Assembly: GCF_003334255.1 (NCBI RefSeq)
Contig: NZ_QOWU01000259.1
Length of the DNA stretch: 348 nt
Direction: 5' to 3' (one strand)
Origin: Escherichia coli
Lineage (GTDB): Bacteria; Pseudomonadota; Gammaproteobacteria; Enterobacterales; Enterobacteriaceae
Shown here: positions 1 to 348 of the stretch, in pieces
How positions within the stretch are numbered: the first letter of the stretch is position 1
Layout: every line of letters begins with the position of its first letter
The notes under the pieces: generated by a model
What the model was told of the DNA's origin: nothing
What the model saw: only the letters and a program-made list of their open reading frames with translations
The model's database searches: none
Made by a program: the position numbers and the translations under genes

Positions 1-117
1 CAGGCACTGGCAGTGGGTGTGGGTTACCGCTTCAACGAGCAGACCGCAGCGAAAGCAGGCGTGGCATTCAGTGATGGCGATGCCTCCTGGAACGTTGGTG
101 TGAACTTCGAGTTTTAA
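1..117 (+). CDS. 3' end of an outer-membrane beta-barrel protein gene (5'-partial; start codon lies upstream of the window)
   Basis: Frame +1 is open from base 1 to TAA at 115-117. Translation: [38 protein letters not shown]. Alternating hydrophobic/polar residues, short turns (NEQT, DGDAS) and a terminal Phe with aromatic/hydrophobic residues at -1, -3, -5 match the C-terminal beta-signal of outer-membrane beta-barrels. Internal GVGYRF resembles the C-terminal motif of OmpX/Ail/PagC-family proteins (from memory). Codons are common enterobacterial ones (ctg, gcg, aac, ttc, ggt, cgc). Family assignment is inference; no gene name can be given. Confidence 0.78.
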
Positions 118-141
118 TTGCTGAAGGTGACATGAAGTATG

Positions 142-175
142 ACGGCAGGCGCAGGACTCTGGTCTGCCGTTTTTC
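142..175 (+). terminator. Rho-independent (intrinsic) terminator of the upstream gene
   Basis: Inverted repeat ACGGCAGGC (142-150) pairs with GTCTGCCGT (162-170): 8 Watson-Crick pairs plus one G.U. An inner helix CAG (152-154)/CTG (159-161) closes a GACT tetraloop, with a 1-nt bulge at G151. The stem base is GC-rich and is followed directly by a T-run (170-174). It begins 25 nt after the TAA stop. There is no A-run on the upstream side, so it looks unidirectional. Confidence 0.65.
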
Positions 176-191
176 ATGGGGCATAAAAAAC

Positions 192-198
192 AGGAAGG
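192..198 (+). promoter_or_regulatory. Shine-Dalgarno / ribosome-binding site for the downstream CDS
   Basis: AGGAAGG (core GGAAGG 193-198) lies 7 nt upstream of ATG 206, complementary to the 16S rRNA 3' end. It is preceded by an A6 tract (185-190), which is commonly seen upstream of efficient RBSs. Confidence 0.55.
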
Positions 199-205
199 TG
201 CTGCG

Positions 206-348
206 ATGAAGGTGATTCTGGCTACCAGGAACCGCTATCTGGAGTATGGTCTGCAGGCGTTACTGAAGGGGCACAGTGTGATACTGGCGAGGGAGTTTTT
301 CCTGCCGGAGAACCGCCGTTATATCCCGGACTTTGACGAATCCTGGCT
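206..348 (+). CDS. 5' end of a protein-coding gene (3'-partial); possibly a LuxR/FixJ-family transcriptional regulator with an atypical receiver-like N-terminus (GadE/DctR/RcsA-like), tentative
   Basis: ATG at 206 with SD 7 nt upstream; frame is open to the window end (47 codons plus a partial codon). Translation: MKVILATRNRYLEYGLQALLKGHSVILAREFFLPENRRYIPDFDESW. The N-terminal pattern (hydrophobic run, T-R-N, then Y-L-x-x-G-L-x-x-L-L-K-G) is similar from memory to GadE (MIFLMTKDSFLLQGFWQLK), DctR/YhiF (MFLIITRDT…ILSKG) and RcsA. In canonical NarL-type receivers this position is the conserved acidic DD pair; here it is T-R. Functional call rests on about 25 residues of recalled similarity and is not verified. 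Confidence 0.68.
   Translation, partial: MKVILATRNRYLEYGLQALLKGHSVILAREFFLPENRRYIPDFDESW

Follow-up and report, generated by a model that had tools for sequence, protein, structure and literature searches.

How is a gene transcribed when a hairpin and T-run that look like a terminator end 31 nt before its start codon and the interval offers no recognisable promoter? The question is raised by a 348-nt stretch of Escherichia coli DNA (referred to here as the window), in which the 3' end of the adhesin gene eibC/eibD is followed by such a hairpin and then by the 5' part of orf-156. The answer that we favour, at a probability of roughly 60%, is a combined picture: orf-156 would have no promoter of its own, and the eib terminator would be bypassed by Q-dependent late transcription of the prophage, with a leak through the hairpin in the lysogen.

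The window and its homologues

The window is 100% identical to GenBank entries AF151674 (P-EibC, positions 2368-2715) and AF151675 (P-EibD), both from prophages of E. coli ECOR-9. Prophage copies in modern complete genomes show 99.7% identity to it. The window sequence was found in 39 of 5,426 complete E. coli genomes, in 1-6 copies each, all chromosomal. The stem-loop is already known: it was deposited in GenBank in 2000 with the same bases as were noted from the sequence (stem_loop 2509-2537 of AF151674, equal to window 142-170). The same entry starts orf-156C at 2573, which is window position 206, and PGAP agrees with GenBank on this start. In the two GenBank entries orf-156C/D is followed by orf-60 and then by eaaC (a serine protease autotransporter, SPATE) or an L0124-like phage gene.

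Homologous loci were pooled from IMG/VR viral contigs, GenBank phages and contigs encoding more distant ORF-156 relatives, and the resulting spacer alignment comprised 13 distinct variants, drawn from phages, chromosomes and plasmid-like elements. A search of both strands of the window against Rfam (E ≤ 10) gave three chance-level matches far below the gathering scores, none of them on the hairpin. No TSS, Term-seq or RNA-seq study of the eib-orf-156 locus was found in a literature search, and the Eib literature searched was silent on promoters, terminators and orf-156. The coordinates of the features are collected in Table 1.

Table 1. Features of the 348-nt window from the end of eib to the start of orf-156.
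Feature	Position	Strand	Basis and details
eibC/eibD 3' end, YadA-type trimeric autotransporter membrane anchor	1..117	+	GenBank CDS; identity to AF151674/AF151675
A-rich left flank, CATGAAGTATG	131..141	+	CATGAAG (131-137) able to pair with 172-178, lengthening the hairpin
GC-rich stem-loop, ACGGCAGGC (142-150) x GTCTGCCGT (162-170)	142..170	+	GenBank stem_loop; fold; terminator scan
T-tract, TTTTTCAT	170..177	+	5 T's at 170-174, first T shared with the stem; then CAT
orf-156 untranslated leader, 31 nt, CATGGGGCATAAAAAACAGGAAGGTGCTGCG	175..205	+	A6 at 185-190; Shine-Dalgarno AGGAAGG at 192-198
orf-156 5' part (156-aa protein)	206..348	+	GenBank orf-156C/D; PGAP; ATG 206-208

The upstream gene

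EibC/EibD is a prophage-borne, immunoglobulin-binding adhesin whose C-terminus reads ...WNVGVNFEF before the TAA stop at 115-117. The best PDB evidence comes from a near-identical full-length protein from one of the pooled loci (L001), which matched 2xqh (EibD; E=7e-84) and 2lme, the YadA anchor (E=6e-18); an NCBIfam YadA_autotrans match (E=7e-36) lies under the curated cutoff. According to two reports, Eib is made by wild-type uninduced strains and is activated by IbrAB (PMC4352079, PMC7649339). The complete phage PhiR5_2, which carries the same cassette (see below), itself encodes ibrA and ibrB.

The GC content is 35-38% in the region upstream of eib and in the 5' half of the gene, whereas the flanks have ∼50-55%; no such deviation is seen in orf-156 or in the 3' half of eib. 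The 360-bp AT-rich non-coding region upstream of eib contained promoter-like matches of 8-10 bits (weak, and scored with an approximate matrix), and a strict promoter scan of this upstream region found no consensus site.

The hairpin and its conservation

The stem formed by A142-C150 and G162-T170 consists of nine pairs including one G.U, with an extra inner extension of 3 bp, and the hairpin core has a folding energy of -19.0 kcal/mol. It begins on the coding strand 25 nt past the eib stop codon. In the minimum-free-energy fold of 118-210, positions 131-137 were paired with 172-178, and complementarity of the A-rich flank to the T-run was seen in all variants. A pattern scan of the window returned one terminator-like site, where shuffles would give 0.3. 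From these sequence features, the eib transcription unit probably ends in a Rho-independent terminator at 142-174; that transcripts would end at this hairpin is inferred from what is known of intrinsic terminators. The T-run of the window, with five T's, is on the short side.

Two further structural possibilities were rejected. A bidirectional terminator would require a T-run on the minus strand, where CATACTTCAT lies 3' of the stem instead, and there is no convergent gene. Pairing between 117-123 and 201-207 across the whole spacer would hide the start codon; with 5 bp for the window and 7 bp for two other variants, it was judged too weak.

Every locus in which an ORF-156 homologue follows a YadA-anchor gene had a spacer of 82-92 nt with the same hairpin. 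Stem pairing was kept in 13/13 distinct variants, with standard pairs in 107/107 pair cells. In the stem, the variants show one compensatory double change from AU to GC (L053) and six extra pair types; one pair alternates between G.U, G-C and A-U. The loop is free to vary in sequence as well as length. Covariation fell short of significance, with a statistic as high as the observed one in 55 of 500 shuffles; its weakness comes from the six of ten stem pairs that never vary. Counted on the 13-variant alignment, the stem differed from that of the window at 0-3 of 16 positions, and the synonymous sites of orf-156 in the same comparisons gave dS values of 1.1-1.7, near saturation. Since the stem is paired in all 13 variants at this level of synonymous divergence, we conclude from the alignment that the stem is under selection.

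The T-run is 5-8 T's long in 11 of the 13 variants. The exceptions are L053, in which it is interrupted (TATTTTC), and L047, a plasmid-type relative in which it has decayed to TTTCC.

The spacer as a place for a promoter

The geometry that the first-pass annotation had read from the letters was confirmed by the sequence: the T-run ends at 174, the ATG is at 206 (as in GenBank and PGAP), and the interval in between contains the A-tract and the Shine-Dalgarno site. Its view of the upstream gene as one for an outer-membrane protein also holds, as the 100% GenBank identity makes this gene the YadA-type eibC/eibD. The interval 175-205 is non-coding, as shown by A5/A6 and T-run length differences that shift the frame between variants. 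Its sequence diverges among variants and an SD-like site is retained.

The same annotation had reported no convincing sigma-70 -35/-10 pair in 118-205, and our scans agree. A strict sigma-70 scan found 0 sites in the window. In a position-weight scan with approximate matrices of our own, the spacer between eib and orf-156 scored 4.66 bits at best for sigma-70, compared to a mean of 7.7 for the best score in shuffled sequences; the best score anywhere in the window was 6.79 bits, which 67% of dinucleotide shuffles equalled or exceeded. With the same scan, the 5' half of eib and the AT-rich DNA preceding the gene reached 10-12 bits. Searching for consensus sites of sigma-54, E, 32, 28 and S revealed nothing convincing. 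The best alternative-sigma match, a 9/12 sigma-E-like GGAACGT-N17-TTTAA at 89-117, was rejected: GGAAC is not conserved and reads TACAAC in other variants. The conserved GTGACA at 127-132 was rejected as a -35 element for want of a -10 partner.

Candidate reading frames in the spacer were dismissed as well. A 25-codon ORF at 132-209, whose TGA overlaps the ATG at 206, loses its frame in the EibA-type variant through T-run and A-run length differences, and most variants lack its SD-like site. An earlier in-frame start at ATG 176-178 falls out of frame in other variants by the A5/A6 difference and has no SD.

The orf-156 gene and its product

Between variants, dN/dS of orf-156 was 0.10-0.21, and by this measure of constraint orf-156 is a genuine gene. 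A gene that is functional on this evidence must be transcribed. Its stop codon overlaps the start of orf-60 (TGATG), and eaa or further late genes come next.

The database matches of ORF-156 that carry organism names are all from E. coli, and the protein belongs to PHROG 6585 (function not known). It had no Pfam match even at E ≤ 10 and no NCBIfam match (Response_reg and GerE were both absent). A PDB sequence search gave no significant match, and the matches of a PDB sequence-profile search were confined to GerE and LuxR-type HTH proteins (E 0.1-0.6). In the AlphaFold (AF2) model (pLDDT 77, pTM 0.70) the N-terminal half is beta-alpha-beta-alpha and the C-terminal half consists of four helices. 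The top 20 Foldseek hits of this model were almost all FixJ, RcsB, StyR, EvgA and VpsT, at a weak level (E ∼1e-3 to 5e-2, TM 0.29-0.48).

Residues T7-R8-N9 stand in place of the receiver acidic pair after strand 1, and the nearly invariant D52 lies just past strand 3 (residues 47-51). If ORF-156 is a receiver at all, the model would make it an atypical one that is not phosphorylated. The first-pass annotation had called the downstream gene a putative regulator. That label is in keeping with the weak FixJ, RcsB and EvgA fold hits and finds no counterpart in Pfam or NCBIfam; ORF-156 as a putative regulator with a receiver-like half and a LuxR-type HTH is plausible but weakly supported.

Other members of the ORF-156 family were found behind long AT-rich regions and beside hpaBC and PerC genes; still others lie upstream of kpsF or after a PapB-family regulator gene. 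These genomic neighbours give hints of an association of the family with surface structures.

Position within a prophage late operon

In E. coli DETEC-S792, packaging and capsid genes, a tail-fibre gene, a DUF4376 gene, an Eib-like gene, orf-156 and a SPATE peptidase gene lie on one strand, and the host genes rcsD and ompC are found beyond the SPATE peptidase gene. In phage PhiR5_2 the eib-hairpin-orf156-orf60 cassette is located in the middle of the late operon on the + strand. Upstream of it are the holin, lysozyme, Rz, terminase, capsid and tail-fibre genes; downstream, on the same strand, come an L0124-like gene, another tail-fibre gene, lom and an 8.4-kb ORF. The layout of PhiR5_2 is lambdoid (int-exo-bet-gam-kil-N-cI-cro-cII-O-nin), and the gene after ninH, the canonical place for Q, belongs to PHROG 753, 'anti-termination protein Q-like' (E=3e-68, an assignment at the level of homology).

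The Shiga-toxin phages 933W and VT2-Sakai have the tail-fibre gene L0121 followed by L0122, L0123 and L0124, without eib, whereas PhiR5_2 and P-EibD carry eib at the position where these two phages have none. L0123 is a decayed remnant of orf-156 (its N-terminus is missing and it has an internal deletion and a frameshift); in front of it are L0122 and a strong hairpin other than that of eib. Because this remnant survives in 933W, orf-156 appears to be an older resident of the site.

Morons are genes added to a phage genome that bring a promoter and a terminator of their own and are expressed from a repressed prophage (PMC3594210). Judged by its composition and position, the eib unit is probably a moron within a lambdoid late operon, which is an ordinary arrangement for phage cargo genes.

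A proposed route for orf-156 transcription

In the arrangement that we propose, the hairpin and T-run would end transcripts from the eib promoter in the lysogen, and orf-156 would receive only those eib-promoter transcripts that escape termination at T170-T174. During lytic growth, polymerase coming from the late promoter and modified by Q would ignore the hairpin, so that orf-156 would be transcribed with the late genes. In both states its own Shine-Dalgarno site (192-198) would drive translation. We infer the passage of Q-modified polymerase through the hairpin, as well as the size of the leak in the lysogen, from established knowledge of such systems. A terminator that leaves no room for a promoter behind it is what would be expected of cargo genes inside a Q-antiterminated phage late operon.

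The first-pass annotation had proposed that orf-156 is transcribed either by read-through of a leaky or conditional terminator or from a promoter buried upstream. Its list of options is still the right one, as there is no recognisable promoter; the cause of the read-through has to be placed elsewhere. Given the late genes downstream and a Q-like antiterminator in at least one of these phages (PhiR5_2), conditional read-through is most likely due to processive Q antitermination and not to a property of the terminator itself. In 933W-like genomes, Q-dependent passage through the hairpin would be needed because late genes lie beyond it. The further claim that the level of orf-156 is tied to the outer-membrane protein gene either way does not follow, because transcription of the late operon would supply orf-156 mRNA without any need of the eib promoter.

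This account needs qualification. Since the T-run is short, termination may be far from complete, in which case eib and orf-156 would form a plain operon. Also, the TAA-hairpin-orf156 module is found in a plasmid-like context without phage Q (L047-L049), so Q cannot be the whole story for the family.

The alternative that survives best, which we consider rather unlikely, is a single adhesin operon. It would comprise eib, orf-156, orf-60 and, in the loci that have it, eaa, and the hairpin would be an internal attenuator or a stabiliser of the mRNA 3' end. There would be a high ratio of Eib to ORF-156 in the lysogen, partial read-through would be the main source of ORF-156, in line with the read-through option of the first-pass annotation, and ORF-156 may feed back on eib. 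The module of TAA gene, hairpin and orf-156, with its spacer of 82-92 nt, is kept in prophages, plasmid-like and other loci, which is consistent with such an operon; the decayed T-run of the plasmid-type relative favours co-transcription, and the five T's of the window together with the promoter-less spacer point the same way. However, the late genes past the cassette in 933W-like phages would be unexplained without antitermination, an action of ORF-156 on eib is only putative, and the stand-alone family members behind long AT-rich regions are away from adhesins of the Eib type. The adhesin-operon arrangement is compatible with the Q-dependent one and equals its lysogen-leak branch.

Activator-dependent promoters may lack recognisable -35 and -10 elements. 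It could be argued that orf-156 has a non-canonical, activator-dependent promoter of its own, located in the last eib codons or in the conserved sequence at or just upstream of the hairpin. The conserved GTGACA matches five of six positions of the -35 consensus, the block AGTGACATGAAG is kept in most variants, the sigma-E-like match is present although weak, and the stand-alone homologues evidently have their own upstream regions. Against this, no -10 element occurs 15-19 bp past GTGACA, where the GC-rich stem is located, the best sigma-70 score of the spacer stays below that of shuffled DNA, the GGAAC of the sigma-E-like site is not shared by the other variants, and the conserved block is equally well explained by its pairing with the T-run. 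Moreover, transcription started upstream of 142 would still meet the terminator, and a start after 174 leaves ≤31 nt with no hexamers. We regard a dedicated promoter as quite improbable.

We give very little credence to the notion that the hairpin is no transcription signal at all, but a protein-binding or recombination site or the leftover of a mosaic junction with an incidental T-run: the cassette does lie in a known hotspot of mosaicism past the tail fibres, where 933W has L0122 and a different hairpin, but 100% pairing with wobble and compensatory changes around a free loop marks an RNA or single-strand structure and not a sequence-specific site, a T-run is found 3' of the stem in 12 of 13 variants, a coding-strand position 25 nt past a stop codon is typical of terminators, and Rfam returned no match.

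A more far-reaching proposal concerns the protein. ORF-156 may stand for a new family, restricted to E. coli, of short receiver-like/LuxR-HTH regulators that are not phosphorylated and move together with genes for surface structures, and the hairpin would serve as a dosing device in the adhesin-linked copies. We hold this to be unlikely as it stands. If true, a fixed small share of adhesin transcripts would be turned over to the regulator in an adhesin-coupled feedback or cross-talk circuit, which would go to full ORF-156 expression on prophage induction.

Dependence of orf-156 on the leak in lysogens could bear on the control of Eib-mediated serum resistance and chain-like adherence, which are relevant to Shiga-toxin-producing and commensal E. 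coli. The importance of the arrangement reaches little beyond the locus, and the function of ORF-156 and the lysogen leak are of local interest.

Comparison with known systems

If the AF2 model is correct, ORF-156 would have the same order of elements as the NarL/FixJ regulators and their non-phosphorylated relatives (RcsB, EvgA, VpsT). At 156 aa it is much shorter than NarL/FixJ regulators, which are ∼200-210 aa long.

The probable moron character of eib can be compared with the morons of HK97 and HK022 (such as HK97 gene 15 in the tail operon) and with lambda lom and bor. Like these, eib is a surface-protein cargo gene among late genes on the same strand, is absent from related phages at the same site, has a deviant GC content and is followed by a probable factor-independent terminator; it is likewise expressed in the uninduced lysogen according to the literature. 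Unlike them, the eib cassette adds the promoter-less orf-156, orf-60 and sometimes eaa past the terminator.

The stem-loop after papA is an internal partial terminator behind an abundant structural gene, and the downstream genes are promoter-less and needed at a lower level. At the eib locus a strong hairpin likewise comes directly after a surface-protein gene, with a promoter-less gene next. In contrast to papA-type operons, the gene after eib encodes a putative regulator and not an assembly component.

A close parallel to the proposed route is found in the Q-controlled late operons of lambdoid phages (lambda, 82, 21 and 933W/H-19B). In 933W/H-19B, Q antitermination drives stx expression. PhiR5_2 likewise has a Q-like gene after ninH, and its lysis, packaging, head and tail genes are on one strand with embedded intrinsic terminators. 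It differs from these phages in that its Q is assigned by homology only, and read-through at the eib hairpin would follow from the established behaviour of Q in the known operons.

Reading frames and signals around the orf-156 start

Directly after the T-run of the hairpin, a second in-frame ATG was found at window positions 176-178, 30 nt 5' of the annotated start of orf-156, the 156-aa gene that follows the hairpin. This ATG lacks an SD, and in the variant spacers that carry A5 instead of A6 it is not in frame with orf-156, so position 206 is the real orf-156 start. A 25-codon ORF at window positions 132-209 (MKYDGRRRTLVCRFSWGIKNRKVLR) crosses the hairpin, and its TGA overlaps ATG206 (ATGA). 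The arrangement resembles a coupling leader peptide. Because length differences in the T-run and the A-run disrupt its reading frame in the EibA-type variant, we rejected the leader-peptide reading, and the ORF is probably a chance occurrence.

GTGACA at window positions 127-132, before the hairpin, agrees with the -35 consensus at 5/6 positions, and most variants retain it. No -10 hexamer was found 15-19 bp after it, a stretch occupied by the GC-rich stem. ATTGCTG (117-123), just after the eib stop codon, can pair with positions 201-207 around the orf-156 start codon and close the whole spacer. The pairing comprises 5 bp in the window, against 7 bp in the EibE-type and L022 variants. It may block access to the orf-156 start codon or may have arisen by chance.

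Genes flanking the spacer

In the eibC locus (L039), the orf-156 stop and the orf-60 start overlap as TGATG (3041-3045), which suggests translational coupling of the two genes. ORF-60 has a hydrophobic stretch at its C-terminal end. Between orf-60 and eaaC, the 91-nt gap (L039 3226-3316) contains no promoter-like and no terminator-like site, and on that ground eaaC also appears to be without a promoter.

We located no eib promoter in the AT-rich region preceding eibC, where it would be expected (see table). The AT-only palindrome annotated there is less likely to be a terminator than a protein-binding or H-NS-type region. ibrB and ibrA, reported activators of eib expression, share phage PhiR5_2 with eib. 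In strain DETEC-S792, a 16-residue unit in the head/neck region of the Eib-like protein is repeated exactly, in tandem (KVDKNATEGVALGAKA twice; L001 11286-11381).

Coordinates of features in the compared loci
Feature	Locus	Coordinates	Strand	Setting
Decayed orf-156 remnant (L0123)	L027 (933W / VT2-Sakai)	2944-3290		Shiga-toxin phages
AT-rich non-coding region, 360 bp	L039	612-969		precedes eibC
Annotated stem_loop, AT-only palindrome (AAATTTATAAAATTAATTTTTAAATTT)	L039	844-872		inside the 360-bp region before eib
ibrB + ibrA	L043 (phage PhiR5_2)	38434-40247	opposite to eib	far end of genome

Remnants and homologues of orf-156 in other settings

The remnant in 933W and VT2-Sakai lacks the N-terminus and carries an internal deletion and a frameshift. 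Upstream of it lie L0122 and a different strong hairpin (AAAAACCGGAGCCCGGCTCCGGTTTTTGTTGTCATG). This region is matched by 313 phage records.

Stand-alone ORF-156 homologues (50-63% identity) were found in three contexts (L044-L046, L050-L052, L056-L057), each preceded by a long AT-rich region. In one, the homologue adjoins hpaBC and PerC-family genes lie downstream; in another, it is located ∼450 bp before kpsF of a capsule cluster; in the third, it follows a PapB-family gene and an Hha gene is nearby. At a plasmid-like locus (L047-L049 3919-4000; CcdAB, PIN/MazE), an ORF-156 homologue follows a short YadA-anchor gene. Upstream are two more adhesin-related genes, one for a 1,439-aa YadA-type protein and the other for an OmpA/BamE-domain protein. 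The spacer hairpin of this locus is homologous but weakened by two wobble pairs, and the T-run has decayed to TTTCC.
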